Below, in pieces: positions 2,916-57,509 of a DNA stretch of 64,000 bases. This stretch comes from Psammoneis japonica (lineage: Eukaryota), in assembly GCA_008632985.1 (NCBI GenBank), contig QPGO01000110.1:62001-126000 (forward strand), given 5' to 3'. Each line of letters starts with the position of its first letter. Position 1 is the first letter of the stretch. The position numbers and the translations under genes were made by a program. A model generated the notes under the pieces. It made no database searches. It worked only from the letters and a program-made list of their open reading frames with translations, and was not told where the DNA came from.

Positions 2916-5149
2916 ATTGTTGCCTCTGTGGAGAGGTAGCAGCTCTCCGGAAGAAGGTCGACAAAAACTTCTTCGTTTCCTATAGGTGCCAACTTACTTT
3001 CCTCTTTGAAGAACAGTGAACTTGTATTCGACATGAATTGAGCTCCCGTCGAAATAAGAATCTTGCTTACGCTCCTTCGTCGCCCGTCTTGTGATAGGTT
3101 GCCTTTCCGGCCTTTTGCTTGTTACTCTTCTTACCAGCGTTTAAAGCGTCAACGAGTTTTGATCGGCAGCGATAGCTGAGTTGGTCAAATCACTTGAGGA
3201 CCCCGAACTCGTTGAACTTGAATCCTGTTTCGAGTCATCGGATGAGCTCGCTCGGCGGGTAGCATGTCGTCTGGTCCGTGCACGGGAGAGCTTCTCCAGC
3301 TCCTTTGTTCCGTAACGGGACAGCTCAAACGTACGGTAGTCGCGTGGCAAAGATATCCTGATCCTTGTGCGCTTTGTGCTGAAGAAGACGCTTGCCGACT
3401 CTCACGTTGTAATTCATACCTTGACAACTCTGGGACCTGCTGGCGAAGGAATTCGCCGCCCTAACTATACAACTGTTTGCCGTTCCACTCTGGAAAAGCC
3501 AACTTCGGCCCAATCTACAAATCCATTATCAGAAGAGTCGATGCTTCGCTTCGACGGCTGCTTATCTTGGATTGCGAGCATTATTTCTGGTTCCAAGAGA
3601 AGCATAATTCCATATCGGTCGAATCCAACGAGGCCCTTCTATTGTTACCTCCAGCAGACTGCTCATAGCGATGGAGTGCCTCTCGTTCACCTTTAGACAG
3701 GCCCAGCTCCTCCCAACCCACTGAACTTACTCATATCTGGGTTGTAGATCAAGTCGTCTGCACAAGAGTTTAGCAATTTCTTTCCAAGACACTGCTTTCG
3801 ATGCAGTTCGGTTGAAAACGCATTCAGGAAATGACCTAAGGTTGATGTACGCTCATCCATTTGAACCAGCGGGAGGATGGTTGGCTCCTGTATCAATCAC
3901 ATATCAATCTTGCCATGTTGGCCATATGAAAAGTCAAGAGTTGCTCGAAGCTTCGTCCAAGCGATTCCTGTCCTAGCGATAAGGAGGCCATGAGGCTTCT
4001 TCTTGCTCATCATGGATTAATGCTTTATCAAATCATGACTGAGTGCCACGTTAATGTCGTCGTGGGCCAACATTGACTTTTTCGGGTGCTTGAATCCGTA
4101 GCATTTCCAATCTTATCTTTTGTGATTAACTGCCACATGGTGACTCTCGAGATGAATTCGATGACGCAAGTACGTTATCGATTCGCAGACTTGAAATATG
4201 ATGTCTGCAGCACCTGTATCCATTCCTATTGCAAGGTCAGTTGAAAAGGCTTAACATGTCACCAATAATCCTCGATTAGCGCTGCAGGGATAATTTGCTT
4301 GGAAGGTGTTGGCATTGTCTCTGTATGGATGCCAGAGTTATTCACAGGAGAGCTCAGAGCTGAAGAGTTTGATTTCTCCTTTCGCCCCGTTATCATGAAT
4401 TGCTGCGATACACCAGATGCATGCTGTCCTTCTCCGTATTGCTATCATTACTCGTCTTGATACGAATTATTCTCAATTTTCTAATTGCTGCTGTTCTTGT
4501 CGCTGCTGTCGCTCTTGTCGCGCTTGCTCTTGTAATAATCTTGCAGCCTAGAGGCGACAATCGCTTCAGGTTTCTCGTGAGAAAACAAATCGTGTCCTCG
4601 CTTCTCAATCTTTCGTACACTGGAAAAGTGCAAAGGCCAACAAACGTACTCTAGACGCTACAAATACTTGTGTGCGAGATCCTCCCGGAATCTTCTTGAC
4701 TGCGCAGAAAGTACGGTAGATGAATGAGAGAATGGTGAGACGCGGACGAAAGAAGATAGAGCTGCGTCTCATAATCTTTTTAAAAGCTAATTAACTTACT
4801 CAATGTTTCAAGCCCCATGTGTCTGTTGCGCTTGTTGGTTGCTGAGCGGGTATGTTTTGAGTTTGATGTCCGCCATGGTGACCTGTACCAATTACAGACC
4901 TCCCAAGCCGGGAGTGCTATGTCATCGCATCATCGCCACGCATCATCAATCGCCATCGTGGTCTATGCGTCGACCGAAAATGCCTAAGGCGCTCCGATAA
5001 CACCCGAACACCGCACCGCGATCTTCAACTTTGTCCAGATTGCCATGTCCAGGTTGCAATCATCATCTTCAAACACTTTGCTGAGCACTTCCATGATGTG
5101 TAGATGAGTGGCCATAATGTGGTTCTCTTCATTTTTCGTGGTGTATCTG

Positions 5150-8100
5150 TCCTGTCAAAATGACATTTGAGGGCGAAGGTGTCTGTGTCGTGTCAGTGAG
5201 ACATTTCAGGGTGTGTGAAGAAGTGCTCTGCTCGCCCTTGCCACACACTTGCTCTGGAAACAGGAAGAGAGAGAGACTGGGCCATTGGTTGGGGGCTCTG
5301 ACTACCCAACTTGTGGGTGGAAGACAAGAATGGCTGCACCACCCCTTTGCTGGGAATGCAAGAGCGAACTTCCGTGAAGCGGGGGTTGTCTGGCTTCCTG
5401 AGTTGGCAGATGACTGCAGCCATTTTTGATGGAGTGTCAAGCCCCAGAGACTCTGGCTCAGTGGAAGCAAGAAAAGCTGGGGAAGATGTGTGCTTGTTGC
5501 CTGACAACCCCTTTGTCATTCCTTGAACCAATGCAACAACAAAACTCTCCAGTGCCAGCTTGGCGGTGAGTGACCCAAAAATGGGCTGTTGGGGCTCATC
5601 TTTGAGAATGAGGTCTGCAAAGCAGGTCTGGCTGCTCTCGGTGTGTTTGGCACCAAGGGTGACATGGAATGCTTTTCATGATCAAGGGTGAGCAGCTGCG
5701 GCATCAGGCAGCCATTGCTTGCTCTTGTGGTGCTCAGCTCAACTTGAGAAATTCTCAAGCATTTGGTGATCTCTTTCTGAAGCTGCCTGTGCTGAGCCAA
5801 GTCATTTGTTGTGTGGCCATGCAGGCAAAAATGCACCAATTTTGAACACTCTGCTGCTTGAGAGCTGAATTTTAGAAATTCTCAGTGCTTGTCCTTGACT
5901 GTGAATATAGCTGGTCAATGCCACCAACCCCCCAGCACTGGCCAAGTCAGGCTCAACATTGTGTTGGTGGCCCTTCATGTCAGAGAAAGGCAGCTCTTCC
6001 TCTTGCTTGTTTCCTGAACATGCTGTCATCCTCTTGATTGGCAACAGCTTTGTCGCAGGCACCCCCCATCCACGCGGCAATGGCAAATTGTTCCCGGTCA
6101 GGACATGGGGGTGGCCCATGATGTTTTGGAACAATTGCTCAAGGGATGCTTCTTTGCTCTTGAGGGCCAGCAAGAGAGAGAAGCTTTGCTTCAAACCTGA
6201 TCCAATGATTGCAAATTGTCCTGTTCTTGGATGCTGGGATTGTGCCAAAGACTGGTGTCTGCTGGGGCACTGTCAAGAGTTCCCTCCTTGACTTGCTTTT
6301 GTCCTGACACCCAGCCTCCTCTTGGTTCTGCTTTTGTGGCAGCCAATCTTGACGGACATGGCAGCCCTCCTCTCCTTCCTTGCCATCATTTTGGACTGGA
6401 CAGCCTTGGGCAACTCTCTCTCTCTCTCTCCTTGCTTGTTGGATGACTTGGCCAAAGAAATCACTCGTCAGCTCTTTGCTGGTGCTTGTTTTTTTTGTTT
6501 TTGAGATGTTGGCCTCCTTTCTGACAGAGGAGCCTTCATGCTTTCATCACTTCAGGATCCATCCTTGGCAAGCCTGTTGCCTTGGTCTTGACAATCTTTG
6601 TTCCTGAGTTTTGTTGGAGATGAGTTTGTCCCCTGCTTCAGTGCTGACAGGCAGTTTTCTTGGTTTTCTGCGCAAATTTCTGTGCTTCTCTTGCAAAAAC
6701 TGAAAAGGTTGACCAGTGCATCAGAGGGGTCATGCACCTCACAGGTCTGATTCATTTTGCATCTCCTCATTGCCCACAAGGTGCTCAAACCATCACATCT
6801 CCAGAGGAGTTTTTTGGGAGCTGCTGTGCTCTCCCAAAAGTTGTCTGGTGGCTGGTGCTGCCTTTTTAGAATTTTGACTTTCCTGTCCAAGACCAAAAAA
6901 TGGCTGGCTGTTTGCTCACAGCTTTTTTTTGTGGAACATCATGTGTGAGATGCTGCTTTAAAACTGAGCCCATCAGAGTGAGCCACAAAATTTGGCGACA
7001 CCAACCAAATGACAGCGATGGCATTTTTCTCTCAGCTTTTTCTGCTTGCTGCAACCCACAACTGCAAAAACATGCACAGCAGCATGGCTCAACAATGCAA
7101 AGAAGCACCATGGGAAAAAAGAGCAGACACAGACACAACATGAGCATGATGGGAAATCAGCCACAGACAGCTGATGCATGATCAAAAGCAAAAAGAGCAT
7201 GTCCACTCATGAGAATCTCAGACCTCATCTCTGAGTTGTTTTCCAATCACTTGTCCTCACCAGAGAGAAAGAAAATGTCAGGAGATTCAGTGTGGACACA
7301 GGTCATTCCAGCCACACAAACCTCCAAGTCAGTGGCGCTGCTGCAGTTGCCAACAAAGTGAGATTGGGCTCTGACAATGGGCTCATTGCAAGGTTTTGCT
7401 GCTGAGTCTTTCATGCAGTTCTTGATTGCACAGAGTGTGGAAAAGGATTGAAAGTCAAGCAAGCAAGGTGCTGCTGTTGGCCTCAACAGCTCACAAGAAA
7501 GCAGCAGCAAAAGCAATTTGAAAGTGCAGGGGGCTCACAGCATCTGTTGCATTTCTGCAGTGCAGCCACATCATGGAAGGCAAAGCACAAGCAAACACCA
7601 TTGCTTGGGCAATGTGCCTGATTGGCAAACACAGGAATTTTTCTTCAGCACAGTCCTTCCATGAGCCACTTCATTTGGAGACAGAAAGATTGTGCGGATT
7701 GTGTCAAGGACCCTCCACATCATGAAGGGACTCTTGCACTTGGATGTGGTCTGGTGGCAGTGCTGTCCACATGACCTCACAGTGGGAGAATCCTTCCACT
7801 GTGCTTGCTGCTGGTGGCAATGACATTGTCAAAAAGGCAGCCAAGTGTGCAATGGCCATGAAGCCAGAACATGGGCCCATGCAGCAACTCACGTCATGGA
7901 AGACATTGCACACATTGGCATCTTGCATGTGGCAAAAAGTCAGAGAACATGAAGGCATGCAACAGGTGTTGCATTTCTTGGCATTGCTGCAGCGATGACT
8001 GCCCTGCCAAGGATTGGCGCAAGAGCCACAAGCGTGCAATGCAGCCCGCTGGAGGCCATGCCACAAGGAGCAGGCATTTCATGCACGTCAATCTCAGCTT

Positions 8101-8234
8101 TACAAATGGCGGCTTTGTGCACCTGAGGGACATGTGCCTCCAGAGGCTGCCAAGACATGTCCACATGAATCACCCAACATGCATCTGTGCAATGTCAAGC
8201 CAGACAACACACACTGCAACTGTCCGTTTTGCGT
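5150..8234. other. TpA- and CpG-depleted degenerate domain (decayed repeat/gene copies), host site of Copia element 1
   Basis: Only about 7 TpA in ~3 kb by manual count; strong TG/CA excess; overlapping Cys/His-rich, Tyr-poor ORFs. Confidence 0.8.
7915..8045 (+). pseudogene. MYND-type zinc finger remnant
   Basis: ACGKKSENMKACNRCCISWHCCSDDCPAKDWRKSHKR matches the MYND spacing C..C..CxxC..YCSxxCQxxDW..HK. Confidence 0.6.
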
Positions 8235-8403
8235 TGACAGACATCCGAGATGGGGAGTGCACTCCCTTGTGTCGGACAGACTGGCACAGACAGCATGGAG
8301 AGATCCGATGATCTCTCCTTTGCTCACTTTCTTTCTCATCTAGTGCACGATTGTCATCTGTCCTAGACATCCGTTAGATTGTCCCGATGCCGCTAGTCCG
8401 CAA
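8235..8403 (+). repeat. 5' LTR of Copia element 1
   Basis: Direct repeat of 15148-15320; begins TGACAG, ends CCGCAA. Confidence 0.95.
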
Positions 8404-8413
8404 GGTTGTGAGC
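8404..8413 (+). other. Primer-binding site (half-tRNA-iMet type), mutated
   Basis: GGTTGTGAGC directly after the LTR; one TA->TG change from GGTTATGAGC, the complement of the tRNA-iMet anticodon arm GCTCATAACC. Confidence 0.7.
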
Positions 8414-8843
8414 AGCAGTGTGCTGTTCCTCTTCTTCTGTGCTCCTCTGCTGCAATGCCCGTTGTGTGGTTTGGCGACTTTTTCTTCGTTGAAATCGTCA
8501 TCATTGTCACAGCCATTTTTTCACCTCTCGATTTGTGATCAAACGACCACCGCAGAACACATGCCAGAGCTCTGCGCAGGAATTTAATTTTTTTCCCGCG
8601 CAACCATGGTGAACAAAAATCAAAATGCCGTCGATTTGACCAAGATCAAGTCGATGCTGGTTGCATTCAACCCCCAGCATGGCTTGCCAGATGCCCATCA
8701 TTGCCTGAACATCCTTTGTTCCGACGAAGACACCTGCTCCTGAAGAACTTCTGGATGGATTTACTCCTCAAGGCCTCAAGAGCGATGCCACCACTGCTCT
8801 CCGTCACAAGATTGTTCATGACCTCATCATCCCCAAGGCTGCC

Positions 8844-11800
8844 TTGACTGAAGATCTCACACGGATTGGGCCGATCATGGACAAAGCTCCTCTCTTTGTG
8901 GCTGCTCCAGAAGCTTCTCTGGTTCATCTAAATCTTGCCAATCTTCAGAAGACTGTGATTGGCATGATCTCAGATGGTCAAAATGCCACAACGGTCTGTG
9001 TTGAGACCATGTTTCTCTTCTTCCGTCCTGATTTCCCGTCGCATGCATGTTGGGACGACATCTCGGATGCTCCACATTCAAAGACATCTCCAACCTCAAG
9101 TTCTGTGCCTCCACCGGTTGCTGCCACAAGTCCCACTCCTGAAGACTTTGCCAAGGCCTCAGCTGCTCATTTGCCTGGTCCAAAACAGTTTGAGCAAGCC
9201 ACGACAAACGCACTGAAGAACTCTGCTCCCAAGACATCATCTTTTGCACCGTCTGCCATGACTGCTGCTGGTGCGGCTTCTTCATTGACTGCTGCTAGTG
9301 CTTTGCACACCTTCAACCCGAAAGGACTTCCAAAGGATGTGCTGGCTTGCCATCAATGCAAAGAAGCCGGGAAAGCAGTGCTCGGAAAATCACTGGCACC
9401 TTGCAAGTCTGGAAACCTTTGTTGCAAGGACGGCACTGAGCGTCTCATCCTTGCCGATGGTTCTCTCTTTGTTCATCACACTGACTGGGATGCAAAGTCT
9501 TTCCTTTGTGACCCCCTCACTTGTGATGACATCTCTCCTCAAGGAATCCGTGCATGGCACACTGCTGTCACCCAACAAGCCTCGGCTTGTGGCACACACA
9601 TGCATCCTCTGTGGTGTTTTATCAAGGATGGTGGAAACTGGGGTTTCACCTGTGGCAATGATCCAACCGATGATCCACCTCTCCAAATGACGGCGGCACT
9701 TGACTGAATGAAACTGACCATCTTCCAGCACATTCAGAAAGTTGGAATTTTTCCTGCAGACTCCAAATGCCCTGACATTGTTCGTCAATGCTGTGGTGAT
9801 GGATGTGTGGCTGTCAAGATGATTCTCTTTGACATCCCACTGATTTGGACGAAGCGTCTGCATGAGTTGATCAAGAGCCACCCGCACCAAAACAATCTTA
9901 CGGTCCTTAGCTGCTGTGCTCCATTCAGAGACTGCCTCCAGCTACGATCCATCATCTCCAATGTTGATGCCTCTCTTGATGACCCTGGTGAGCTCGACAT
10001 CTTTCTCAGCAACACCCACTGTGGCGAGCACCTTCACCGTAAAACAGCGGATGCCCGGGAAGACAAGAACCAACAACACAAGTTCACCCAGAAGAAAATT
10101 GTTGAAACTGTCAGTGCGATTCTCAAGGAACCGGACAGCCCAGCTCTTCATGTCAAGGACCCTCCCAAATGTCCTCCACGTCGTCTTCACACTTTGCCTC
10201 CTCCTCCTCTCGCAGCTCCTGTCCGCGGTCTTGACTTGCTTCCCAAAGATGAAGTTTCTACTCTGCCTCCTGCGATTGAGGAGCCTCCCAAGGCAACTGA
10301 ACCTCCTGCTGTGGAAGAACCTGCGGAAACCATGGAGCATTTTGTGAATGAACTTGCTGCTGTGGATGTTCCTGCGCAGATGATGATGCACAAGCCCTCC
10401 ATGGTGTCCACAAGGCCTGCATCCACAGGATCAAGTCCTCTCCTGCCATTGCACAGAACCGTCCATGTGTTGTTTGTGGCAATGACCACTTGTTCCATGA
10501 GTGTCCTGTGTTGAATGATGCTGAGCACCTGCGCACTCATCTCATTCAGTTCTCCCAGTTCCTTCAATGTGATCAGCGTGCTCGTGATGCACCCAAGTCT
10601 GACACGGCCAGAAAGGATTTTTCCCAGGGCTGTTGTCATGTTCGGACACACAATGCCGCCCATCCTCCTCCCATCCAAAAACTCCTGCAAGCGGGGCAAC
10701 TGTGAAAGAGGGTCCAACCGACTCGTTGCCTTCCGCTGATGCTCCTCTTTCACCTGTCTCATTTGCCAACCTTCTTTTGGGCTCGACAAAGGCTGGTGCT
10801 CCTGATCCCAAGACGATTCCTGATGATGACCCTGGTGATCATAATCAGGGGAGGGCATTAGATCCCTCTACACTGGATGCTGCTGTTCCATTGTCTGCTG
10901 ATCAAGACCAAGAATTTGAGCATCTTGATGTGACCAACACCCAGCATTTGTCACCTCTCAGTGCCACACGCATCTCCCCAATTTTTTCTCCCCCGGAATC
11001 ACCTGCGACCTTTGCATCCTTGACTGCTCCAGTTGTTCCCATCAATCATGTCCTTTGTGATTCAACGATTTGTCATGCACAGATTGATGCTGGCACTTGG
11101 GCATCCTGTGCAGGGGACAAGAAACTCCTCCATGCCCATGCTCCCTTTGGACCGGATGATCCTTGTCCTTTGAAGATGCTTCCTGCTGCTGAAGGCTCTG
11201 ATGTGGTTCCTCATGGCTTTGGTTGTCTACAGGTGCCTGCAGACAATCCTGAAGGTTTTCTTCTTGTGCGCACCTTTTGCCATCCCAGCCTGCGTTCCAC
11301 TTTGATTGACGAGCATGATTTTGCGCAGGCTTCTGGTTTCAAACCTCAGTCCATTCGCTCCGAGCTTCTTGAGAAGACATGCGCCGACGGCACTTGCACT
11401 TACACTGCTTCCACTGATGCTCAAGAGGTGGTTGTCCATGGCACACTTCGACATGGCAAGGTCTTCACACAACCCCTGGTTCCTCCGTCTGCGTCCAATG
11501 TCCCTTCGACATCACTGACTCCTGACTTGTCCTTGGTTGATGACACTGATGATGCCTGTCAACGTGCAGTCTTTTTTGTCAACATCCAACAAGGTCCATC
11601 CGATCCCTTGCTGATGGACACAGAGCTGTTTTCCATGCAGTGTGACACAGCTCCCAACATCTCCCCTCCATTGTCTGCCTCTGCTCCTGTCCGCTCTCTC
11701 AAAGTTGAGACTGAACGTCTTCCATGGCATCAACGCCTTGGACATCCCAGCGATCACTGTTTGTGCCATGCTCACAAGTGTGTCAAGGGCGTCCCCAAGT

Positions 11801-14800
11801 TTTGACGTGCCAATCCTGTCCTTGACATGTGCCCTGCGTGTGTTCAAGCCAAGCAAGTCAAGACTCCCGCTGGTCCAAACATGACTTGGAAGGCAACCCA
11901 GCCATGCCAAGGTCTCACTGTAGATTTTGCTTTTGCTGGCCAGACTTCCAAGAATGAAGACCGCAAGGTTGATTGTCTTGGATGCAATGGTGAAACGTGT
12001 TGGATTGCTGTCTATGATCATCACACGCGGATGCTCCATGGAGCAGCGAGGGTTTCCAAAGCCAGTCCCCTCAAGTGGCTTTGCCGATTCTTGGATCGAC
12101 ATTCACCAAATTGTTGTGACAAATGTGTGTTTGTGGACCAAGGTGGGGAATCATGCAAAAACCCCAAAGTTCGTGACCTCTTTGAACGCGAATTCCAGCA
12201 TGACATCTGTCCTTCTGGCACTGGTGCATCCAACCAATGTGGACCTGTTGAACGCTCACATTTGACTGTTGAAAACGCGATTCGTGCAATTTTAATTGGT
12301 GCCAACCTTCCGATTCGATTCTGGCCCTGTGCATTTTGCCATTGCCTCCGCATCAAGAATGCTGCTCCTGCAAAAGATCAAGATGCGGCACCCATCACTC
12401 TTGCCACCGGAAAGGTCGAAGATTTTACTGCTCTGAAGACTTTCGGATGTCGAGCATGGTCCAAACGGTCCACTGCTTGTTCTGCCACCTTCCGGACCAA
12501 TTCCAAGAAGGGCACATTCCTTGGTCACCTTCCAAACACCCTCAAGAATGTCATGTGGTGGGATCCTGAGACTGACAAAGTCAAGACGGCCAAGCATGTG
12601 TGCTGCAATGAGGGCATGAATGACCTGTTTTTGGATCAACTCCCTCCCAATGCCATCCATTTGCAGTGTGTGGAAAATGGTCAGCCTTTTCCAGCTGAAA
12701 CACAGGACACCACCGTTCCTGTGTTCACGTCTTCGTTGAATCCTTTTGCTGCGACTGTCACATGTGCCATGAAACGTCCTCCAAAGGACCCCACTTGTGG
12801 TTTTGGATTTTCCCAGTGTGCGCTGATGGACCGTGTCTGTGTGTCGGAAATCAAGCAGCACAGTCCTGCGGCTTCCTTGTTTTCTTCCCTCCGTGCTGCC
12901 CGCAACAAGATTGTGGGTGCATGCGTTGTCTCTGTCAACAAGCGTGAAGTCGTTGCTCCATTGGATGCTGAAGAGGCCTCATTTCAGGTCTTCCATGATG
13001 AAATCCCAACTTTCGAGATTGCTTTTGCGCCGGAACGACGATTGGATTCTTGCACCCTTGACAAGGCATTTGAGGAAGCAGAGTCATTTGCACCTGACTC
13101 CATGGAGGACGACTCCCATGTTCCCGAACTCACTTTGGAAGATGTGCGATCTGTTGCGGCTCTTCTCCATCCTGATGATGATTTTTTGGATGAGGCCATC
13201 CCTGCGGATGTCTTCTGTGCACATCTCAATGCGATTGGCTCCCGCTCTCTCACTCCGGAGGAAGCTGCTCTTGACCGCCTCACCCGTGCCAAGCTTCATA
13301 AACTTGACACATGGCCTGAATGGGAAGAAGGCAAACAGCATCAATTGGATCAATTTTGTGCCCTTGGCATGTGTGGTCCTCCACAGCCATGTCCCCCTGG
13401 TGCGAACGTCATGCGTCCGCATTGGGATCACATGGTGAAGCCGGATGGACAACGTCGTTCTCGGCAATGTGGTGATGGCTCCAAGTCGGCAATGCCGGCC
13501 TTGCACAAGTTGACTTCCACCTGTTTGTTGTGTGTGGAACGCTCTGTCGAAAAGATGTTTTTTGCTCTCAGCGCGGCTGTGTTGCATCATGTCTTTGGTG
13601 GTGATGCCTGGGATGCCTGCGCTCATTCTCCTGGTCCTTCCCAGCAGGTTTTTGTTGCTGTTGATGATGCATGTGCCACCTGGTGTGAAAAGAGATTTGG
13701 CAAGACAGTGCCCCACCATTGTGTTCTTCCGCTCAAGCATGCTCTTCAAGGTCATCCTGAGGCTGGTGTCCTCTGGGAAAAGCGCATCAATTCGATTCTC
13801 ACAGGTGCGAAACTTCTTTTCCACAATGCTGCTCACGACAAGTGCATCTGTTCCGGTGAATGTGATGGTGTCAAGGTCCTTCTCCTTTGTCAGGTCGATG
13901 ACTTTGCTCTTGCTTGTCCTTCTGAAAGGATTGCAAAAGAGATCTACGACCATGTTGGCAAGGCTCTCCAGATGGAGAATGAGGATGCTCCTCCCTTTAA
14001 GCATTTGGGCTTGGTTGCTGAATTCAATGGTGTTGATGTCATCCAAAATGACGATTCAATTGCTGTCAACATTGCCAGTTGCCTTGACCGTGTTTTCAAG
14101 ACACATGGTTGGGATGCTCCTGCTGCGCATGAGTCTGATTCTGATTTCAAGGCTGCACCTGTTCCGGTTGATTGCACTCCTGATCTGCACGCCACTGAAG
14201 GTCCTGAAGAGGGCACACCTGAGTGTGACACTCTCGCTGAGTCCCAGAGATTCTCTTGCCATTCTGTTTTGGGTGAGTTGGTCTTTGCCTGCTCTTGTTG
14301 TCACTTGGACATTGGTCATCCTGTTGTCACCTTGTCCAAGTTTTCCAAGGCCCCGGCTGAGCTTCATTGTGATTCACTCAAGCATGTGGCCAAGCATTTG
14401 TGGTGCACCAAACATTGGGGGCTGACGTGTGTGAAGTCTGGGCGCGATCCCAGTCTGCCTCCTTGCGATTTCAAATGGCTTGAGGATGACCCATCTCTCC
14501 TGGACTTTCCTTGTGCTGAAGACTTTTTCCAACTTCTTGGTTTCATTGATGCGGCACATGCCAATGAACTGTGGCGTCGCCGTTCTGCTGCTGGACATGC
14601 GCGTGTCCTCCTTGCTGGTGCTGCAATTGACTGTCGATGCCGCGCGCAAATGATTGCGCTGCCAGTTCCACGGAAGCTGAGTTTCTCGCGGCTGTTGCTG
14701 GTGTGAAACAGACCCTGTGCCTCCGCATGGTTCTGGAAGAACTGGGCTTTCCCCAGCGTGATCCTGCTCCCTTGCACATTGACAACTCCTCTGCTGTCCA

Positions 14801-15005
14801 GATGATCAACAACAAGGTGCCTGCGGAGCGATCCCGCCACGTTGACATTCAACATTTTGCTGTCCAAGACTGGCGTGACGCAGGCAAGATTGTCACTCGA
14901 CACATCCCGGGTGTCATCAACCCTGCTGATGCACTGACCAAGGCTGTGGGTTGGGTGCTCCATTCCCGCCATGCTGCCTGCCGTTTGATGGGACATTGCC
15001 GTTGA
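8844..15005 (+). pseudogene. Copia gag-pol (gag, GAG-pre-integrase, integrase, RT, RNase H), broken by stops and frameshifts
   Basis: WHQRLGHPS pre-integrase motif; integrase DFAF..DQGGE..VERSH; RT QVDDF; RNase H SSTEAEFLAA..IDNSSA..RSRHVDI..NPADALTK. Split across ORFs 8844-9707, 9708-10514, 10633-11805, 11827-14706 and 14637-15005. Confidence 0.9.
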
Positions 15006-15137
15006 TTGTTGTTGGGTTTGTTGTGGATTGAGTCTTGGGTGTGTCTCTGTTTTATTTGTTTTTTGTCTTTGCCATTCTGGTCCTCTCTTTTTATTCGGAT
15101 CGTCTCTTTCTTTCTTGTTGAGCATTGCAATGCTCAT

Positions 15138-15147
15138 CAGGGGAGGG
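15138..15147 (+). other. Polypurine tract of Copia element 1
   Basis: CAGGGGAGGG immediately upstream of the 3' LTR. Confidence 0.8.
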
Positions 15148-15320
15148 TGACAGACATCCCCGAGATGGGGAGTACACTCCCTTGTGTCGGACAGACTAGC
15201 ATAGACAGCATGGAGAGATCCGATGATCTCTCCTTTGCTCACTTTCTTTCTCATCTAGAGTACACGATTATCATCTGTCCTAGACATCCGTTAGATTGTC
15301 CCGATGCCGCTAGTCCGTAA
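15148..15320 (+). repeat. 3' LTR of Copia element 1
   Basis: Direct repeat of 8235-8403; begins TGACAG, ends CCGTAA; followed by TSD TGCGT. Confidence 0.95.
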
Positions 15321-16016
15321 TGCGTTCTTGCCTCCCAACACCAGCTTGTCACTCTGGCAAAAGCAATGAGGAAGATTCACAAGAGATGGACGCAAAACAA
15401 CCATTTTGAATGCTCCTCATTCTCTGGCATCAATGCCAGAGACATTGCTTCTGGAAGGAAGGCATCTTCCTCCACTCGACCTTGTTGAAATCTGACACAA
15501 TGTAACACCATCATTTGCTGTGAGAAAGAATGAAGAGCGCCCAAATCAAAGAAAAGGAAACCCAAAATTGAAAATTCAATGTCTCAAATGACCCTGCTGT
15601 CAGAGTGTTCCACCTAAAAGCACACTTCTTGGAATGGATCGCTGCTGCTTGCCGGCACGAGTGAGGAGCTGTGCTTGATGAGATCACACCTCTTCGTGTG
15701 AATTTAGCTGCGCTTTCGACCTGCCTCCAAGCGCTTGGCAAGCTGTAGCTGTCTTGAATACTACACCTTCTATTTTGGCATGACTTAACCTGCGAAGCGA
15801 GAGATGAGGACTAGTTCGTAATCGTGAATGCTAGCTAGTAGATAGAGTTACCGCTTTGCCCATCCGGACTTTGGCTTACCCGCGTACTTGTTGTAATATA
15901 AGCACCTCCTACGAAGCACGTACTCTACGTTATCACTCCTATCGCACTCAACATCATTGGGGCTACAGTACTGTCAGGTGCAACTAGCTAAAATTGGTTT
16001 TTAACGTACACATCGC

Positions 16017-19825: not shown

Positions 19826-20300
19826 TGCATAAGGTGAGATGAGGTGCTTGTATGATCTACTAGGGGGCCCTAAATCAGTTGCGACTCTCGCGAAGTATCG
19901 TTGTCAAACTTGAAGACGGCGCAACTCGTATGCGGTATGCAATGGCTCTCCTCCACTTAAGTAGCTCTGCAAAATGAAGAACCGACTTGAAAAGAAGCAA
20001 TGTCAGAACGACCCGTCGCAAACAGCCTTTCATACACCGGAAATGAACTGCTTATTGCAAGCGCCGAGAAATGATAGATCGATGTTCCGCGATTGTGCTG
20101 TTTGCTGTTAGCAAAGGACACAACGATTTTCCTATTTCTGAAATAAAAACGCGATAAAAGGTCAAAAAATTAGTCGTGACGTCATGCTTTATTTGATAAT
20201 CCCTTCATCTTTTGAAATTTGAATTGACAATTTTTGAAAATCCAAATCCATACCTCAACTCATCAACTCACAACTCACAACAATATAGAGTGAAAGCTCG

Positions 20301-21308
20301 ATGACGTTCTCTCCGCCTCCCATGCCGTTGCTCTCCATTTCCAGTCCAGAAACGATTGAAAAGTGCTCTCTACTGCCTCCATGTAATTCTGATATATTCA
20401 TTTGCTCATATCCCAAGAGCGGGACAACTTGGACGCAGCACATTATTCTGTCGCTGCTCTTCTGTCACTTGACCAACACTGCAACAACCTCTTCAACGCT
20501 GCCACCCACTTACAATCACGTGTCCGAGTACGCTCCGTTTTATGAGATTGATGCACACTGGGAAGAGGAGAGCAACAAATTGATACCACGTATTCGAGAA
20601 AATCACGAGAAACTGGGACGAAGAGTCTTCAACACACACTTGCGTTTCGACATGCTTCCAAAGCCTCGCTCAAAAGACGACGCTCCAAAGCTGATTTACA
20701 TTGTTCGGTCACCTCTCGATGTATGCGTCAGTTTCTATCATCACCTTTCACACCAAGTTGAGGGTGGATACGAAGGTTCTTTTGATGCCTTCTTTTCGGA
20801 TTGGATAAAAGGCAGAATTGCCTTTGGTTCGTGGGTGCATCACGTCCTGTCCTTTGCGCAAGGCATGACCCATGGAAACGAAACTAGTGGACATGTTATT
20901 CGATTGGAAGATGGCCGGCAGATTCTGTTGCTTTCTTATCAAGACATGGTGGAGGATCTAGCCTCAGCGGTGCAACAATTGGTAGACTTCTTGGAACTGC
21001 GTGTTTTTGCTGAGGATTTGAAAGAGCTCGTGCCCAGCTTTTCATTTCAAAGCATGAAGGATGATATGGATCGTTTCCAGCCTCAGAGTGTGACATGGAA
21101 GAACAATTTCTCTTTCTTAAGAAGGGGCATATCGGGTGACTCGGCGGAACTCGTGTCCAAGGAACAAGAAGGAGCGTTTCGAGAGTGGATTGAGAAGGAA
21201 AAATACAAGGAGCTCTTGTCAAGCTGGTTGGAAGGAGCTCATCCATTGCTATTGAGCAAGTTTATTCAATTGGCGGAGGATGATAAAACTGGAGGAGCAT
21301 CCTATTAG
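20301..21308 (+). CDS. Sulfotransferase (Sulfotransfer_1 family)
   Basis: 5'-PSB SYPKSGTTW, 3'-PB RSPLDVCVSFYH, C-terminal FLRRGISGD. Confidence 0.92.
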   Translation: MTFSPPPMPLLSISSPETIEKCSLLPPCNSDIFICSYPKSGTTWTQHIILSLLFCHLTNTATTSSTLPPTYNHVSEYAPFYEIDAHWEEESNKLIPRIRENHEKLGRRVFNTHLRFDMLPKPRSKDDAPKLIYIVRSPLDVCVSFYHHLSHQVEGGYEGSFDAFFSDWIKGRIAFGSWVHHVLSFAQGMTHGNETSGHVIRLEDGRQILLLSYQDMVEDLASAVQQLVDFLELRVFAEDLKELVPSFSFQSMKDDMDRFQPQSVTWKNNFSFLRRGISGDSAELVSKEQEGAFREWIEKEKYKELLSSWLEGAHPLLLSKFIQLAEDDKTGGASY

Positions 21309-50676: not shown

Positions 50677-50953
50677 TGACAGAAAATGAAGGCAAATGGC
50701 AAGAATTCAAACAACAACTCCTTACTGCTGTCTAAACAGCAGATGAGTCTCCGCTCAGAGACCGTCACAGGAGCCGAAAGACGTGCAAGTCGGTGTGATC
50801 GGGCTGCTGTCATTGTTCTTGTGAGCCTTGTGGCTCGAAAGCAAACTGCATCGCGCGTGAACGTTGCAGAACTAAAGCACACAAAACTGTGCACGGTAAA
50901 CTAAACAGCGCACGACACTTCGCGCGCACCTGGATCCTGTTCAAATCCTGTCA
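50677..50953 (-). repeat. 3' LTR of Copia element 2
   Basis: TGACAGAAAAT...ATCCTGTCA, repeat of 57510-57785; adjacent purine tract AAACTGGGGAG on the minus strand. Confidence 0.95.
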
Positions 50954-53900
50954 CTCCCCAGTTTGCTTGAGGAGCCACAGAAACAGATTCGACTTCGGAT
51001 GGAATGAAGTTCCAGAACATGAGGGGGCGGAGAAGGTCCCAGATTTGGGAGCAACCCCAATGCTTGCTGAGAATGTCAGCAGGGTTGCGGGAGCCTTCGA
51101 TGAAGTGGAACTCAAGGCAACCAGAGGCAATTGCCTCACGCACACGGTGGAACGACAGTGCGGTGTGTCGCTTGTGTAACTTGGAGTGCGGGATGGTGGC
51201 ACTGTCTACAACCGACTTGTTGTCACCGAACATGTAACTGACATTACGGATCGGGACGCCAAGGCAGCGCAGGGTGATGCGCAGGTCGACAATCTGCTCA
51301 ACACAATTCCTTGCGGCAACAAATTCAGATCCGCAGGTTGCAGTCTCCACGGTGGCTTGTTTCTTGGAGAACCAATCAGCCGGGAATTTGTTGAGGAAGT
51401 GGAGCATTCCCATGACAGAGCGTCCGGTGAGCATGCAATGGTGCAAGTTTGCATCGACGTAGTGGGTGGCAGTGACGAACTTGCCAAGGGGCGGTGGAGC
51501 GTCCTTCGGGATCATCTCTTCTGCTTCACCATACACGGAATGCATCCATTCATAGGCCGGAGCAGGGAGATCCGAATGGTCGGGCTCTTCCGTGCGAACG
51601 CGGAGAGCACCGTGTCGCATCTTGGAGAGGCACCCACAGACGCGTTTGGCACGATCCAAGTGGCCTTGACGGGGCGCAGCTCGGAAGCTGGAGAGTGACA
51701 TGACGGCTGTGGCAATGTCAATTCGACCAAGGGACACTGCCCATTGGAGTGAACCAACAAGAGACTGGAACTTGTGAATGCCATCGGGTCCCAGCAGTTC
51801 GGAAGTGTCCAGTTCGGGGTGGTCACCCTTCTCTAGAGGTGACAGGGCGTTGGTGGCAGGTTTCTCCCCAAACAGTCGGGCATGGCTGTCGACCATGCGC
51901 TCGATGTACTTGCGCGGAGACAGGCACAAGGTTCCGTCGGGTTCCCGGGAAAAGTCGCAACCCAGATGGAACTCAATGGGTCCCGCACCCTTGAGCTTGA
52001 ACTTGTGCTTTTCCGTGAGAGTGTCGACGAAAGATTGAGGGTCCTTCATGGCAATGGCGAGGTCATCCACATAAACGGCAATGCATTCACAGTGGTCGCC
52101 GTTCCTGCGCATCCAAATGTCGGGTTCGGCGCGGCAGGGGAAGAAGCCTTCAGCTCGCAGGCAGTCGGCGAAGCGCTCGTGCCAGCGGAGACCGGAGCTG
52201 CGCAGTCCATGCAGTGCCTTGTGGATGACAAGGATGTGCCCTTCGAGTTTGCCAAACTCGGGTCCAGCTACAATGTAAAGCTTCTCCTTGGTGGTGGCTT
52301 CAAGGCAGGCATTGCCAATGTCGGTGGCCCATGTCTCCAACTCATTGAGTTCGGCCAGGAAAATCATCAGCCGAAGGCCACGGAGGGAGACCACTCCGGA
52401 GCAGACACTGTCGACAGGCATGTCCGTGAGGTGCCCGTCGGCTGCGAGTCGTGCCTTGTGGCGACCGTCGTGTTTCACGTCGCACACCAGGTGCACTCGG
52501 ATCTTCTTGTGTCCCGCAGGAGGAGTGGAAGACTTGAAGGGCCCGCAGTCATGGAAGACTTCGCATTCGTCGAGTTGGTCCATCTCGAGATTAGTTGCGT
52601 CTCCCCACTTGCGGTTGCCGTTGCGTTCGTCTAGTGACATGGCGTGTTTGTAGTTCCGGGGAACTTCGTGTCCATGCTTGTAGCGAGGTGCAGTGCGGAA
52701 GGAGCGAAGCTTGGCTTGGTTGGCCATGCGAAACAGCTTCTTTTGGCGCCTCGCGATGGTGCGGAACCGCTTCCAGCCATCCGTGTCGAGGAGTCCGTTC
52801 TCTCGTGCATAGATGGCACAGGTGACGGGGTCGTCCTTGGCGATGATGGCAAGAGGCTCGGACGTGATCTCCCCACTTTCCCATTCAAGCATGATGTTGT
52901 AGCTGGAGCCTTTCCAGGTTGGGTCGTGAGGCTTCAGAGGTCCTTCGTGCGACACGATGCGTCGAAATTTCCAAACAGTGGTGTCTTCGTCTTCTTGCTC
53001 AATGTGATTCATGATGTCATTGCAGGCAAGGACTTCCTTGCATTCGTCATTGTTGACAGAGCAGACGAACTTAGTGAGCTCGGGATTGCCGTTCACTTTC
53101 CATTCGTGGTCTTCGACGGCCTTGACGATGCGAGCTCTGTGGCATTGTCCGTCCTCTTGTGGCTGCATGAGGAAGGTACGTCCAATGATGTCTTGCGGAT
53201 CGAAAACTGGCATCTTGGGTGTCCTGATCTCCCCATCAGGAGAGTCGACGGGGTTGTCATCATGGCGAGATTTGATGATGGGTTCAGGTGGCTCCCCATC
53301 AGGAGGATCAAGACGCAGGTTTCGAATGGCAGGATCGGGTGTAGCGGAGCGGACGTTGGACCGGTGGAGGATCTTCTGAGTCTCGTCAGATAGAATCTTG
53401 AAGGTCATCTGGTGGCCGATGTGCTCAGCAATGCCAACGAAGCGTCCACGCAACTCACGGGATTCGGACGGCCAATCGGAGTCATCGAGGTGGAAGCACA
53501 CGGGTTCCCACCAGTGAAAGCGAAGCAATGGGCTGATGTCCGGGGTGGAGCCAGTGAGAGTCTCGAGGGGCGTGCGCCAGTGGAGACGTGGGGACGCTGC
53601 ATGGTTGAGTGTGAAGCACACGCACATGAGCGCCAGCAGCCATGTGTGGGCGGGCGAACCAAAACGATCCATGACAGTGTTCGCCATGCGCTTCACGGTC
53701 TGGTGTCGACGTTCGGCAAAGTTTTGGTGTTGCTGGTGAGGCTCACTTTGCCAGCTAGAGATGAAGAGGGTGCGCAGGACACCGAGCACTTTGTTGCTGA
53801 TCTCAACTTGAGCACGGTCGCTAATGAGTTTGGATGGAGCACCACGTTCACGGATCTGATCCTCGAGTGTGTTGACAAACTCTTTGTCCGTCTCAGTGCC

Positions 53901-56600
53901 GTAGACGTCAGTGACGGTAGACTCGGTGCCAACAAACAGTTGGGCGCTGGTGCAACCAGAGTCGACGGCCGGGGTGTCGGCATGAACGGTGTCAGTGGCG
54001 ATGGGCTCGTTGCGGCGGTGCACATTAAGGGCGGGGTTGGGTGATTTGCAGGCCTTGCGAAGGTGTGTACCGGCGGGCATGCGGGCGCACTGCGTGGTGC
54101 AGTCAAAAGTACGACGGACCGCATCGGCAGGTAGGAAGCCAAAGCAAGGCCGAAGAGACTCGAAGGGGGGGTCCTTGGGCTGTACAGTGCGCTCCGGAGG
54201 TGGAACGTCATCGCCCTTGGGGTCAATCGCATGCAGATGACACTCGTAGAACACGTCGTCGTTCGGAATGAGGTGATCATCGAGGGCGGACGCGTGATCG
54301 GCAGACAAGGAAGCGGACAAGATGGTCTCGTTGACAACGACACGATGACGGCAGTTGCCGCACTCGCCAAACAGGTTGGCAGTGGGATCGTCCTGCAGGT
54401 CAGAGATCGCGTCGCACCACTGGTCGTCGTCAGTGACGGAGTGATCGAGGACGGAAGGGTCCCATGTGTCATCACTGGTGAGGATGACATGGGGCAGGGT
54501 GTCCCATTCGGCATCAGTGTAAGGTCGCATGGCAACATGAGGCAGGCCAGCCTTGATGTCAATGGGGATGACACAGCCATCAGGAGTGGCAATGCGTTGC
54601 AAGCCGTTGGGCACCTTGACAGAGCGATCGTTGACATCCTGTTTGCACCATTCGAGCTGGCCGCAGGAATGGATGGTCTTGCCCTTGCCCGTGCATGCGC
54701 ACTGATGGAGGATGGCGATGACGGGACCACGCTGGGTCTCAACAACGGCACCAGTGGTGACAATGGGGATGTCCACCAATTGATGATCGTCAATGCCCTG
54801 AACGTCGACTTGGCGAGAGGTGCGTGCAATGACGCGAACGTCGTCGCCAGCAATGCCGCCGTTGGCCCCACGATCGACTAGAGCGCCAGTGCGTGTGGAG
54901 CGATGAGCAGAGGCAGAGCAAATGACATTGTGGTTGTCAACGCGGCGGCAAGTGCGGCCGTTGAGTTCTGTGTCATCTGCAGAAGCTGGCGGGGTAGAGG
55001 AAGCGGCGGATGGCCCCGGTCGACTGGCATTGGGGGCTTGGTCAGGAGACAACAGACGTTGCAGATCACCGGGTGGCAGCGGCTTGCGCTTGGTGAGGTG
55101 CGCCAGGATGGGATTGTCCGAAGTGGCGTCCACATGTGGAGCGGAGTCACCAGAGTCAGCAGGAGTCGTGTTGGACAAGTTGACATCGCCGTCACTCCCA
55201 AGGCATTGGTCGTGAAGGTTGGCCGCAACAGACTCATGGCAGTTGCTGGCTCGCGGGTTGCGGGGAGGTGGACGAGAATGCTCAAGGATGATCGCCTTGG
55301 AGGAATCGGGCAACGAATCCCAGAGCCGTTGGTGGTCGGGAGGGAGACGTCTCCATTGGACACCGGCGAGGCTGGGACCGCGGGTGTGGGCAGCATTGGC
55401 CTGAAGGACGTCAACGTCGCTGTCAATGTCGTAGAACACATCGTCGGACGGTTCCTCGGAGCAGACGTCATGTGCGTGCATGGCGCGTCGGGGAGCTTGA
55501 GGTGTCGTCTTGGGTTGAAACGTGCTGTCGCACTGAGCTGCCGCGGAGAGGAGCAAGCCACAGCATTGATCGCATGTGAGGCTCTTGCCACTCTGCGCAC
55601 GATGCTGATCAGCTTGGCTCTTGACAGCACGGAGTTCCTCGACAGGGTGCACGGCATTCTCGAGCATGACGCGCTTCTGTCCTTCAGAGAAGTGGTCACT
55701 GGCCGGGATGAGTGCCTCGCACTTGCGCAACTGATCTTGCCAATGAAGGATGAAGCCGTGGGTCGGACCTTTCCAAGTGCCATCACCGAGACGCGCGGTG
55801 GTGAGGTGCGTGAGCAGGGTGGAGGACTCGATGGATGCGCGGGTGGAGGCAAGCGCGCACTCAGACAAGGAGCGGCAGACGGTCTGTGCGTCAGAAGACC
55901 CCACATTTTCGCGAATGAGAGCCTTGCCCTTGTCGGTGAGAAGGATGCGTTCGAAGACGGCGAACATGTGCTTTTGCTGTTCAGCAAAGAGCAGTTTGTC
56001 TTCGGGGCTGGTCGGTTTGTACGACGAGTCTAGAATGCACTCGACGTCTTGGGCACGGGCTTGTGCCACAAGTGAGGTGTGCCAAGTGTGCCACTGCTTG
56101 TCGGATTTGAGAGCCGTGAAAGCGGTGGGATCACGCTTGATGCCTTGCTTGAAGTCCCGCACCGGGTCGCGTGCCTTGGTCGGGTTGGTGACATGTGGAG
56201 GTGCAAGGGGTGAGCTGCCGATGGACACAGAAGACATGTGGTCGGGGCTGAGGCGGCAGGCAAGGAACTCGTCATGCGCGAACAAAGAGGAGTCGTTGGC
56301 AACATCAAGACCTTTGTGTGCTTTGACAATGCACAGACTGACCAGTGCTGCCAACATGTTCTTACAACCACGGGGCAAAGGGATCACATTGGTGCCGTTG
56401 TCGTGCTCAAGCGAGTCGATTTGGGACGGCATGAACGTGAACAGTTCCTGATGCGAGTCCGTGCCGTCTTGGGCCAAAGCCAAACGAAGAGGACTCCCAG
56501 CACCTTGGGCAAGCACGGTTCCAACCACGTGCTCGAAACCATCGGTTTGTTGCTGACGAGTGAGAACCATGGCAGACAAAAGTGGTGTCAGGACAATCAA
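50901..56600 (-). CDS. Copia gag-pol polyprotein (protease, integrase, chromo-like domain, RT, RNase H), open but heavily missense-mutated
   Basis: Protease LVDRGANGG; integrase TDTV..SDRA..NFAERR; RT YVDD; RNase H YVDAN..SEFVAA..GDNKSV..NPADILSK. Confidence 0.93.
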   Translation of the reverse strand: MIVLTPLLSAMVLTRQQQTDGFEHVVGTVLAQGAGSPLRLALAQDGTDSHQELFTFMPSQIDSLEHDNGTNVIPLPRGCKNMLAALVSLCIVKAHKGLDVANDSSLFAHDEFLACRLSPDHMSSVSIGSSPLAPPHVTNPTKARDPVRDFKQGIKRDPTAFTALKSDKQWHTWHTSLVAQARAQDVECILDSSYKPTSPEDKLLFAEQQKHMFAVFERILLTDKGKALIRENVGSSDAQTVCRSLSECALASTRASIESSTLLTHLTTARLGDGTWKGPTHGFILHWQDQLRKCEALIPASDHFSEGQKRVMLENAVHPVEELRAVKSQADQHRAQSGKSLTCDQCCGLLLSAAAQCDSTFQPKTTPQAPRRAMHAHDVCSEEPSDDVFYDIDSDVDVLQANAAHTRGPSLAGVQWRRLPPDHQRLWDSLPDSSKAIILEHSRPPPRNPRASNCHESVAANLHDQCLGSDGDVNLSNTTPADSGDSAPHVDATSDNPILAHLTKRKPLPPGDLQRLLSPDQAPNASRPGPSAASSTPPASADDTELNGRTCRRVDNHNVICSASAHRSTRTGALVDRGANGGIAGDDVRVIARTSRQVDVQGIDDHQLVDIPIVTTGAVVETQRGPVIAILHQCACTGKGKTIHSCGQLEWCKQDVNDRSVKVPNGLQRIATPDGCVIPIDIKAGLPHVAMRPYTDAEWDTLPHVILTSDDTWDPSVLDHSVTDDDQWCDAISDLQDDPTANLFGECGNCRHRVVVNETILSASLSADHASALDDHLIPNDDVFYECHLHAIDPKGDDVPPPERTVQPKDPPFESLRPCFGFLPADAVRRTFDCTTQCARMPAGTHLRKACKSPNPALNVHRRNEPIATDTVHADTPAVDSGCTSAQLFVGTESTVTDVYGTETDKEFVNTLEDQIRERGAPSKLISDRAQVEISNKVLGVLRTLFISSWQSEPHQQHQNFAERRHQTVKRMANTVMDRFGSPAHTWLLALMCVCFTLNHAASPRLHWRTPLETLTGSTPDISPLLRFHWWEPVCFHLDDSDWPSESRELRGRFVGIAEHIGHQMTFKILSDETQKILHRSNVRSATPDPAIRNLRLDPPDGEPPEPIIKSRHDDNPVDSPDGEIRTPKMPVFDPQDIIGRTFLMQPQEDGQCHRARIVKAVEDHEWKVNGNPELTKFVCSVNNDECKEVLACNDIMNHIEQEDEDTTVWKFRRIVSHEGPLKPHDPTWKGSSYNIMLEWESGEITSEPLAIIAKDDPVTCAIYARENGLLDTDGWKRFRTIARRQKKLFRMANQAKLRSFRTAPRYKHGHEVPRNYKHAMSLDERNGNRKWGDATNLEMDQLDECEVFHDCGPFKSSTPPAGHKKIRVHLVCDVKHDGRHKARLAADGHLTDMPVDSVCSGVVSLRGLRLMIFLAELNELETWATDIGNACLEATTKEKLYIVAGPEFGKLEGHILVIHKALHGLRSSGLRWHERFADCLRAEGFFPCRAEPDIWMRRNGDHCECIAVYVDDLAIAMKDPQSFVDTLTEKHKFKLKGAGPIEFHLGCDFSREPDGTLCLSPRKYIERMVDSHARLFGEKPATNALSPLEKGDHPELDTSELLGPDGIHKFQSLVGSLQWAVSLGRIDIATAVMSLSSFRAAPRQGHLDRAKRVCGCLSKMRHGALRVRTEEPDHSDLPAPAYEWMHSVYGEAEEMIPKDAPPPLGKFVTATHYVDANLHHCMLTGRSVMGMLHFLNKFPADWFSKKQATVETATCGSEFVAARNCVEQIVDLRITLRCLGVPIRNVSYMFGDNKSVVDSATIPHSKLHKRHTALSFHRVREAIASGCLEFHFIEGSRNPADILSKHWGCSQIWDLLRPLMFWNFIPSEVESVSVAPQANWGVTGFEQDPGAREVSCAV

Positions 56601-57498
56601 CTCTGGTTGGGAAGAGAAGGTAGACTCGAAACTTGGGTGAGAATGGACTTGACTTGAAACAGACTTGACTTGAAATCTTGAACTGTCTTAAAATCAGAAG
56701 TCGCCGGGCTTTGTCATCCCGTTCGTTGTCAAGTGCTAAACTTCCCATCCGGTCCGTAGAGTTGTGCCGGCACGTCCGAACCCGCAGCTGGCGGCGCTTT
56801 GGGTTGCTTGCGAGCGGAGCAGCGGGTTGTAAACCCCTGCAGGCAAGCTGACTGGAGGTGGACAAGACCCCCGAACCGTTCTCATTTTATGTCGGTTGGA
56901 TTTCCCGATCAGGCTGGCCAGTTGACGCAGGCGTCAGGCGCTGTGGACGAACGAACAAACGTGGGAAAGCACCCTCGCCCCAACGCAGGCTGCAATCACG
57001 GCTGCTTGCTCTCACAGTCGTCCTCGTAGACCTAGCAGAACTGTAGAGCACCAGTAGTCCGGGGTAGATCAGGTACAATGGACTCGGTGTGCTTGTAGAG
57101 TGGTGGCAAAACCGCAGTCCGAAGAGTGGGTGCAGGTTCTTGGCCGTGAAGATATGTATATATACACATGTCTTCAGCGACGAAGATCCTTGAATATGTA
57201 GGGTTCTTGACCGTTAACCGATGAATAGGTATATCAAGGGATGAGGATCAAGGATAGACTTGGATATGACCGTTGAATGTATGTCTTCAGCGATCAAAGG
57301 TAGTATAATCAATCCAGATATCCAGCGGTAAGGAGACTTGACGGTGACGTTAACTTCCTGCCGATGCCCTGGTATTGAATGCGCGTAGACTTGCCGATGT
57401 ATGTAGGATATATACGGAGGTCCACGTAGAATTGAAATAGCGTCGTTGGTAAATCAACGACGACGATGGCGGTTGCTCAATGGGTTGACAATGAGCAA

Positions 57499-57509
57499 GA
57501 CTGTTAATC
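57499..57509 (-). other. Candidate primer-binding site complementary to a tRNA-Asn(GUU) anticodon arm
   Basis: Minus strand reads GATTAACAGTC directly after the 5' LTR, the complement of GACTGTTAATC. Confidence 0.55.

Follow-up and report, generated by a model that had tools for sequence, protein, structure and literature searches.

Why does a retrotransposon of the diatom Psammoneis japonica encode almost no tyrosine (Tyr)? The element is a Ty1/copia long terminal repeat (LTR) retrotransposon at 8235-15320 of a 64,000-nt stretch (the window; GenBank assembly GCA_008632985.1, contig QPGO01000110.1, positions 62,001 to 126,000, forward strand), and was recognized by two direct LTRs, a 5-bp target-site duplication, a polypurine tract and a zinc knuckle. 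The best explanation overall, to which we assign a probability of about 0.8, is that a host process erases TpA dinucleotides in repeat islands after insertion and thereby strips Tyr from the encoded proteins.

Tyrosine content of the element and its homologues

An earlier, sequence-only reading reported about 3 Tyr in some 2,000 codons of the element, 2 of them in a 959-aa open reading frame (ORF), and a normal Tyr content in a sulfotransferase gene of the window. Our counts agreed with this. We found 3 Tyr in the frames between 8709 and 15005: 0/332 codons at 8709-9707, 0/268 at 9708-10514, 1/400 at 10603-11805 and 2/966 at 11806-14706, the last holding the 959-aa ORF. The zinc-knuckle frame (116 codons) and the RNase H tail had none, and the sulfotransferase had 10 in 339. 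The 959-aa ORF contained 57 Cys (5.9%), 43 His (4.5%) and 2 Tyr, compared with medians of 1.6% Cys, 4.3% His and 3.5% Tyr among 92 homologues. At that median, the probability of 2 or fewer Tyr in 959 residues is 9e-13.

We took a column as conserved for Tyr when 70% or more of the homologues had this residue. None of these 16 columns retained Tyr in the window element, which had 11 Cys, 4 His and 1 Phe instead. At conserved columns it retained Trp (11/11), Phe (19/22) and Gly (37/41), and 17 of 33 Arg. The gain of Cys and His is partly a change of Arg to Cys or His through CpG decay. The motifs FWPCAF, FLGHLP, DACAHS, CHSVLGEL and DIGHPV, in which Cys or His had been said to stand for Tyr, were all present. 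Tyr was found in 77/92 homologues at the FWPCAF site, in 59/67 at the first C of CHSVLGEL and in 63/68 at the DIGHPV site. The DACAHS site was Tyr in 46 and Phe in 29 of 76, and the FLGHLP site Tyr in 34 and Phe in 51 of 86; in copies of the window element's own family the latter was Cys in 12, His in 3 and Tyr in 1. Cys or His in intact homologues at such positions would have counted against a loss. Among the 77 homologues with enough coverage, 2 carried Cys or His at two or more conserved columns, and one of these (P0071) looks mutated alike when set against P0094, a full-length member of its cluster: 8 of the 44 changes between them are Tyr>Cys.

We fetched 20 stretches around copies of the window element's family, of which 16 were projected onto the window, giving 17 copies with the window itself. 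Among these, 20 of 22 tabulated Tyr-derived codons carried both TG and CA (for example 9:8, 8:8 and 7:9). At six further Tyr positions nearly every copy had Phe or Trp; these are family differences, and they fit the notion that the family is naturally poor in Tyr. An assembly or base-calling artefact would likewise fit the small indels seen in short-read contigs at three frame breaks of the element, so that part of the frameshifts may stem from misassembly or from letters that belong to other copies. For the loss of Tyr, however, both notions are refuted by the Cys/His mixtures across copies and by the Tyr gradient of a younger family described below, and we give them next to no credence. The adjacent genes are intact. 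Short-read contigs from one public run, possibly of the window's own sample, were identical to the window over five pieces of the element (146-281 bases each), and the Tyr loss is thus no base-calling artefact; the match also speaks against a long-read artefact.

Loss of TpA sites and its timing

We examined the DNA of the element and its surroundings. The observed/expected (o/e) ratio of TpA was 0.00-0.13 per kb over 5-15 kb, compared with 0.36-0.79 in TA-normal bins, and 30 of the 64 kb-bins of the window held 10 or fewer TA. Site counts were made on 12 copies including the window; the near-duplicates L033 and L041, the distant subfamily L047 and L050, and the partial copy L049 were left out, and L043-L046 were used for LTR pairs only. 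There were two clear classes of column, 402 being TA-class and 288 being CpG-class. The window element retained 33 of 401 TA-class sites (about 92% lost), with 216 now TG, 148 CA and 4 CG, and 183 of 284 CpG-class sites. Processive hits in strand runs were not seen, as the hits showed no strand clustering (0.543 versus a null of 0.535). In this family and in the younger one, the changes were A:T>G:C transitions at TpA on both strands; C>T occurred only as slower CpG decay, and TpA was removed. The changes touched the LTRs, neighbouring repeat DNA and the primer-binding site (at 8407-8408, TG in 10 of the 17 copies, CA in 5, TA in 1 and uncovered in 1), and genic DNA retained TpA. These results indicate that Tyr was lost through a DNA process that ignores reading frames, as a side effect of it, and not through protein evolution. 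A hit on either strand converts Tyr to Cys or His, because TA opens every Tyr codon. Sense codons are not made into stops, and frames therefore remain open until the slower decay of CpG brings in TGA stops.

A younger copia family, represented in the window at 50677-57785, gave a time series. From 427 first-look candidates, of which 40 were scored, 20 copies (L051-L070) were fetched by likeness to the window copy. Over 250 conservatively classed TA columns in the 21 copies, the median TpA loss was 61% (range 27-72%), while the loss was 4.4% at CpG and 0.6% at the remaining sites; TpA loss was about 14 times CpG loss. In the 17 full-length copies, Tyr ranged from 9 to 53 while the sum of Tyr, Cys and His held at 164-172 (rho -0.91). 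The Tyr of the reverse transcriptase (RT) motif was retained in 19 of 21 copies, and selection for it was rejected as unneeded, as site retention varies widely and the motif context is of a less-hit type.

It had also been proposed that the element was inactivated by missense rather than by nonsense. The codon change TAY>TGY/CAY held: 2,141 hits in the young ORF created 0 stops (26% silent, 689 Tyr>Cys, 337 Tyr>His), as did 143 window hits, and all 5 in-frame stops of the 21 young copies lay at CpG sites. However, two in-frame TGA stops and several breaks of the frame were found in the window copy too, and of the 21 in-frame stops counted in the 12 copies of its family, 15 were CpG-class (1 TA-class, 5 other). 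The window copy was therefore not damaged by missense alone. The predicted inflation of spurious ORFs was real but only moderate. The element had 3.0-3.4 off-frame stops per 100 codons, and three genes had 3.6-4.1. Simulated TA loss in 28.7 kb of host DNA raised the stop-free frames of 150 or more codons from 23 to 52, and with CpG decay added there were 39 at 36% decay and 30 at 85%.

The LTRs of one element are identical at insertion. Those of the window element differed by six substitutions, every one TA in the 3' LTR and TG or CA in the 5' LTR, which places the hits after insertion. In the 19 of 21 stretches with two LTRs, the pairs differed at 42 TA versus TG/CA sites, 59 TG versus CA sites and 38 CpG-type sites, with 11 other transitions and 14 transversions. 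Inheritance of the hits from mutated donors was rejected, as same-direction hits in both LTRs (133/167) showed no clear excess over the 123 expected from site bias. Two insertions were each present twice at the same target site; the members had 320 and 356 hits in common and now differed mostly at CpG, indicating that TA loss is early and saturating while CpG decay continues. The members (L032/L033 and L040/L041) are 98% identical and represent a single insertion that was duplicated or is present as two alleles.

The LTR pairs bear on the alternative that the changes preceded insertion, through ADAR-like RNA hyperediting or RT error. ADAR favours a 5' U according to the available text of bioRxiv 10.64898/2026.01.13.699255, the genome has an ADAR/ADAT1-type paralogue, and sense-strand TG exceeds CA (216:148). 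However, 148 of 364 hits (40%) were antisense, repeat DNA other than retroelements was also hit, and the LTR pairs of single copies differed at TA sites, which largely refutes this idea; we did not find the ADAR-type pattern, in which A>G is confined to the transcribed strand and the LTRs are identical at insertion. TAG, which we take to be the context preferred by ADAR, was among the least-hit. We consider an origin before insertion very improbable.

Site retention was uneven within copies. TA-class retention in the window element's family was 26-30% in the LTRs and 2-13% in the interior. In the young family, the 3' LTR was hit while the 5' LTR was spared at 122 sites, versus 10 in reverse, and the leader was spared too. 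The window element's own LTRs showed the opposite, the 3' LTR being the spared one. The copy L038 has TA-normal flanks, LTRs that keep TA with 0 differences over 104 compared bases, and an interior TpA o/e of 0.08.

Nature of the TpA-erasing process

We propose that the element started as a normal diatom Ty1/copia retrotransposon that contained Tyr. The data show that, once a copy had inserted, a host process on chromosomal DNA in repeat islands turned A:T to G:C at TpA, altering sites singly and on either strand, and that TpA loss outran CpG loss and saturated early. The target would be a chromatin domain and not paired homologous copies, as a domain with protected promoters or edges appears to fit better than homology pairing. 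The most likely chemistry, at roughly even odds, would be that a TadA/ADAT-type enzyme deaminates the A in TpA, giving inosine. TpA erasure may serve in genome defence by crippling proteins and the primer site.

A>G per strand reached about 30% at TA in the young family and 0.5-0.65% at AA, CA and GA. The same repeat-restricted process might act instead on the T of TpA as oxidized thymine, or through an error-prone polymerase at work in the repair of methylated DNA. On symmetric strands A>G and T>C look alike, and TpA-poor bins were mostly CpG-poor as well. However, TA was hit about 45-60 times as often as AA, CA or GA per strand, which is stricter than the WA bias that we take polymerase eta to have. 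In the context analysis of both families, TA survival showed no link to the distance of the nearest CpG, and TpA and CpG losses were weakly correlated among young copies (rho 0.39, p 0.08). We regard these two variants, taken together, as unlikely, although they form the strongest of the alternatives. UV photoproducts at TA were ruled out, as their spectrum is presumably A>T/T>A and they lack repeat restriction.

The erasure was regional in the window and in the flanks of the 21 young copies, with host genes spared. Between 19 and 20 of these copies were flanked on both sides by TA-free DNA, and thus whole islands were hit, not elements alone. This would suit a passive by-product of silenced chromatin, such as poor repair of a common TpA lesion with no role in defence, and so would the expansion of the young family regardless of the process. 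On the other hand, the loss of about 60% of TA sites versus 0.6% elsewhere and the strict context suit an enzyme, and the rate given in the available text on B. natans (see below) is about 1,000-fold over background, with activity in some lines only. We hold a passive origin to be somewhat less probable still than damage to T or an error-prone polymerase.

The sequence context of the hits was consistent between families. In a competing-risk fit made for each family separately, a hit A favoured a following pyrimidine (relative 1.2-1.7) over purines (0.6-0.75), and T two or three bases upstream of TA was disfavoured. The fits cross-predicted the direction of change between families (rho 0.24-0.49). 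TadA-derived adenine base editors and ADAT2/3 share with this process A>G in DNA, and a pyrimidine on either side is preferred (YAY) by the TadA-derived editor, an engineered enzyme, in the available text of PMC10188366. The TAY preference found here may be said to resemble YAY, as a resemblance only. CA was hit no more than GA or AA in the diatom elements, so that TA specificity is stricter than YAY.

Searches with PF00383, PF14437 and PF02137 found the ordinary deaminase set and a second ADAT1/ADAR-type gene, with no additional deaminase from PF14437. Judged from their translations, we take them to be dCMP deaminases, TadA-like, ADAT2, RibD and two other small deaminases, along with a pair of ADAT1/ADAR-type proteins. 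The ADAT1/ADAR-type domain genes lie at G000:C79:344558-345390 (L161, L162) and G000:C40:112674-113392 (L160, L163); the C79 gene has intact-looking catalytic motifs, and a TA-poor stretch starts about 1 kb upstream of it. The C79 gene, which is the second A_deamin paralogue, belongs to a conserved family with the deaminase domain alone in 13/14 scanned relatives. ADAT2 (L076:1351-1953) has its HAE and PCxxC motifs set apart by a long insertion, across which many relatives match, and its named relatives include Skeletonema and Thalassiosira. A TET/JBP search gave no match, and its controls matched nothing either. According to the available text of PMC9998398, CG methylation of transposons is the work of DNMT5 in diatoms, and their DNMT4 is a relative of RID.

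Several observations count against the explanation by host TpA erasure, or limit it. None of the deaminases found in the three domain searches was connected to the process. No unmutated copy of the window element's family was seen, as TpA o/e was 0.02-0.11 in 28 other loci (0.21 in L023, flank included), and the direction of change therefore rests on the site classes and on homologous Tyr. Damage to A and damage to T in TpA are indistinguishable because the strands are symmetric in sequence. The context accounts for part of the variation between sites (cross-family survival rho 0.16-0.42). In the young family, 35 of 177 heavily hit columns were nearly one-directional and may be inherited or misclassed, and this family, which gave 427 first-look candidates, multiplied despite the process.

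Within the literature searched, we found comparable TpA hypermutation described solely for one unrelated alga, Bigelowiella natans (Mettrop et al., bioRxiv 10.64898/2026.01.13.699255), in integrated nucleocytoplasmic large DNA virus (NCLDV) and virophage DNA. According to the available text of this preprint, A>G/T>C changes are limited to TpA, affect both strands, are regional and strike foreign DNA, with the spectrum directly measured; TpA-poor coding sequences are enriched for RT and DDE-endonuclease domains, and ADAT2 is proposed as the enzyme, as a hypothesis. Both features that could be checked here, TpA-only A:T>G:C changes on both strands and regional erasure with host genes spared, were found in the diatom. 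B. natans differs in being rhizarian, in having single-copy viral insertions and in a TpA o/e that is still 0.45, whereas the diatom process affects multi-copy retrotransposons near saturation (TpA o/e 0.05). The present study adds LTR-pair dating, the 3' context and the protein consequence. A literature search with most subscription papers outside its coverage returned no description for diatoms of TpA-specific A:T>G:C transposon rewriting, and TpA is unmentioned in the available parts of PMC6604790, PMC11884799 and 10.1101/2025.10.24.684338.

Related loci in metagenomes carried similar scars. TpA o/e was 0.31 or lower in 9 of 80, and Tyr>Cys/His changes were found in 8 of these 9 (two near-identical). 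Between L091 and L111, which are 86% alike, 39 of 52 TA had become TG or CA and 0 had changed in reverse. The scarred copia relatives are L111, L116, L118, L120, L127, L135, L112 and L155, with P0071 and P0072 among the proteins. Their protein identity to the window element is about 45%, which suggests other organisms.

Fungal RIP (repeat-induced point mutation) in ascomycetes is a repeat-restricted C>T process that creates TpA and stop codons. The diatom process is likewise made of repeat-restricted, dinucleotide-specific transitions on both strands of chromosomal DNA with genes spared. In contrast to RIP, it takes TpA away without making stops, mutation is lightest in the LTRs, the portion with the most repetition and the closest linkage, and C:G>T:A with TpA enrichment was not found. 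The sparing of the LTRs, with those of L038 unmutated over the compared bases, makes a trigger by homology that is strongest on linked duplicates less likely. The diatom process parallels RIP in logic and falls outside RIP on chemistry.

Element structure, neighbouring features and significance

The features of the element and its surroundings are listed in Table 1. The element is colinear with the intact diatom polyproteins P0001-P0003, and integrase precedes RT and RNase H (PF25597 before PF07727). In the 959-aa ORF, the profile search gave PF25597 at E 1e-7 and PF07727 at E 4e-4, under the cut-off, and proteins of Nitzschia inconspicua and Fistulifera solaris matched it at 46-48% identity. 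Named relatives of the element came from these two species and from Cylindrotheca fusiformis. The gag region is broken by frame changes near 8726 and 10370 and by an in-frame TGA at 9705-9707. The protease and pre-integrase names are our presumption from position and from the WHQRLGH motif. An exact 5-bp target-site duplication was present in 13 of the 19 two-LTR copies, from which the LTR termini of the family read TG...AA and not TG...CA. TG...CA ends are missing in 3/26 CoDi families too, in the available text of Maumus et al. (PMC2806351). The element resembles CoDi Ty1/copia elements described there in being an LTR element with the copia domain order whose nearest named relatives are from pennate diatoms, and differs in that those relatives retain about 3.5% Tyr. 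The genome held 46 matches to the element (40 of 73 candidates scored). L043-L046 are short two-LTR derivatives of the family (2.6-2.9 kb), TA-erased as well.

Table 1. Features of the retrotransposon, its domain and control loci in the window.
Feature	Position	Strand	Basis
5' target-site duplication TGCGT	8230..8234	+	same 5-mer at 15321-15325
5' LTR (TG...AA), 4 TA retained	8235..8403	+	comparison with 3' LTR
Primer-binding-site position, TpA-class site mutated	8404..8414	+	adjoins LTR
gag region, no Tyr	8606..10514	+	27-33% identity to P0001-P0003
CCHC zinc knuckle (CxxCxxxHxxxxC)	10466..10504	+	visible in translation
Presumed protease and pre-integrase region, 1 Tyr, TGA at end	10603..11805	+	36-43% identity to P0001-P0003
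Integrase, SH3-like, RT, RNase H start; 959-aa ORF	11806..14706	+	Pfam and protein matches
RNase H end, shifted frame, no Tyr	14658..15005	+	62-64% identity to P0002/P0003
Polypurine tract AGGGGAGGG	15139..15147	+	sequence
3' LTR, 9/11 TA-class sites retained	15148..15320	+	comparison with 5' LTR
Host sulfotransferase, control gene	20289..21308	+	PF00685 E 4e-46; 10 Tyr/339
Younger copia element, control	50677..57785	-	PF07727 E 1e-24; 1,928-codon frame open, 16 Tyr, ORF TpA o/e 0.16
TpA-erased domain holding element and other repeat-like DNA, sharp edges	5000..15745	.	TpA o/e per kb, TA positions

Other parts of the window were also observed. At 26700-33900 and 58000-62900 lie repeat blocks of a tandem-like kind, free of TA and poor in CpG, in which many stop-free frames are Tyr-less and rich in Cys (Tyr 0-0.2%, Cys 6-7%). 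Nested long inverted repeats (206 nt at 99%) lie in TA-normal DNA at 39573-41636; they are apparently unhit and perhaps a recent foldback element. An SNF2-family helicase gene (PF00176, PF00271) with normal TpA lies at 41828-44645, and a frame downstream of it has a CxxC...CxxC motif.

The finding has practical consequences. Most LTR differences are made by the process, and therefore LTR-based dating breaks. Profile detection is weakened, as RT scores fall under the Pfam cut-off. Long open frames remain, which gene callers can list as proteins, and the Tyr-poor metagenome copy P0071 is filed as a 'hypothetical protein'. Exact matches to the 959-aa ORF and to the sulfotransferase were sought in the protein collection, and neither was there. 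As the sum of Tyr, Cys and His is conserved, proteins alone offer a simple way to screen any annotated genome or metagenome for the process.

The diatom case would extend the B. natans process to a second, genetically tractable lineage, in which enzyme and trigger become testable. More tentatively, and with the odds against it, diatoms and Rhizaria might share a host DNA adenine deaminase (ADAT2/3 or a stand-alone ADAR/ADAT1-type paralogue) steered to silenced chromatin. It would act as a 'reverse RIP', a natural adenine base editor that disables transposon proteins by removing Tyr, leaves their frames open and seeds Tyr-less, Cys/His-rich ghost genes.

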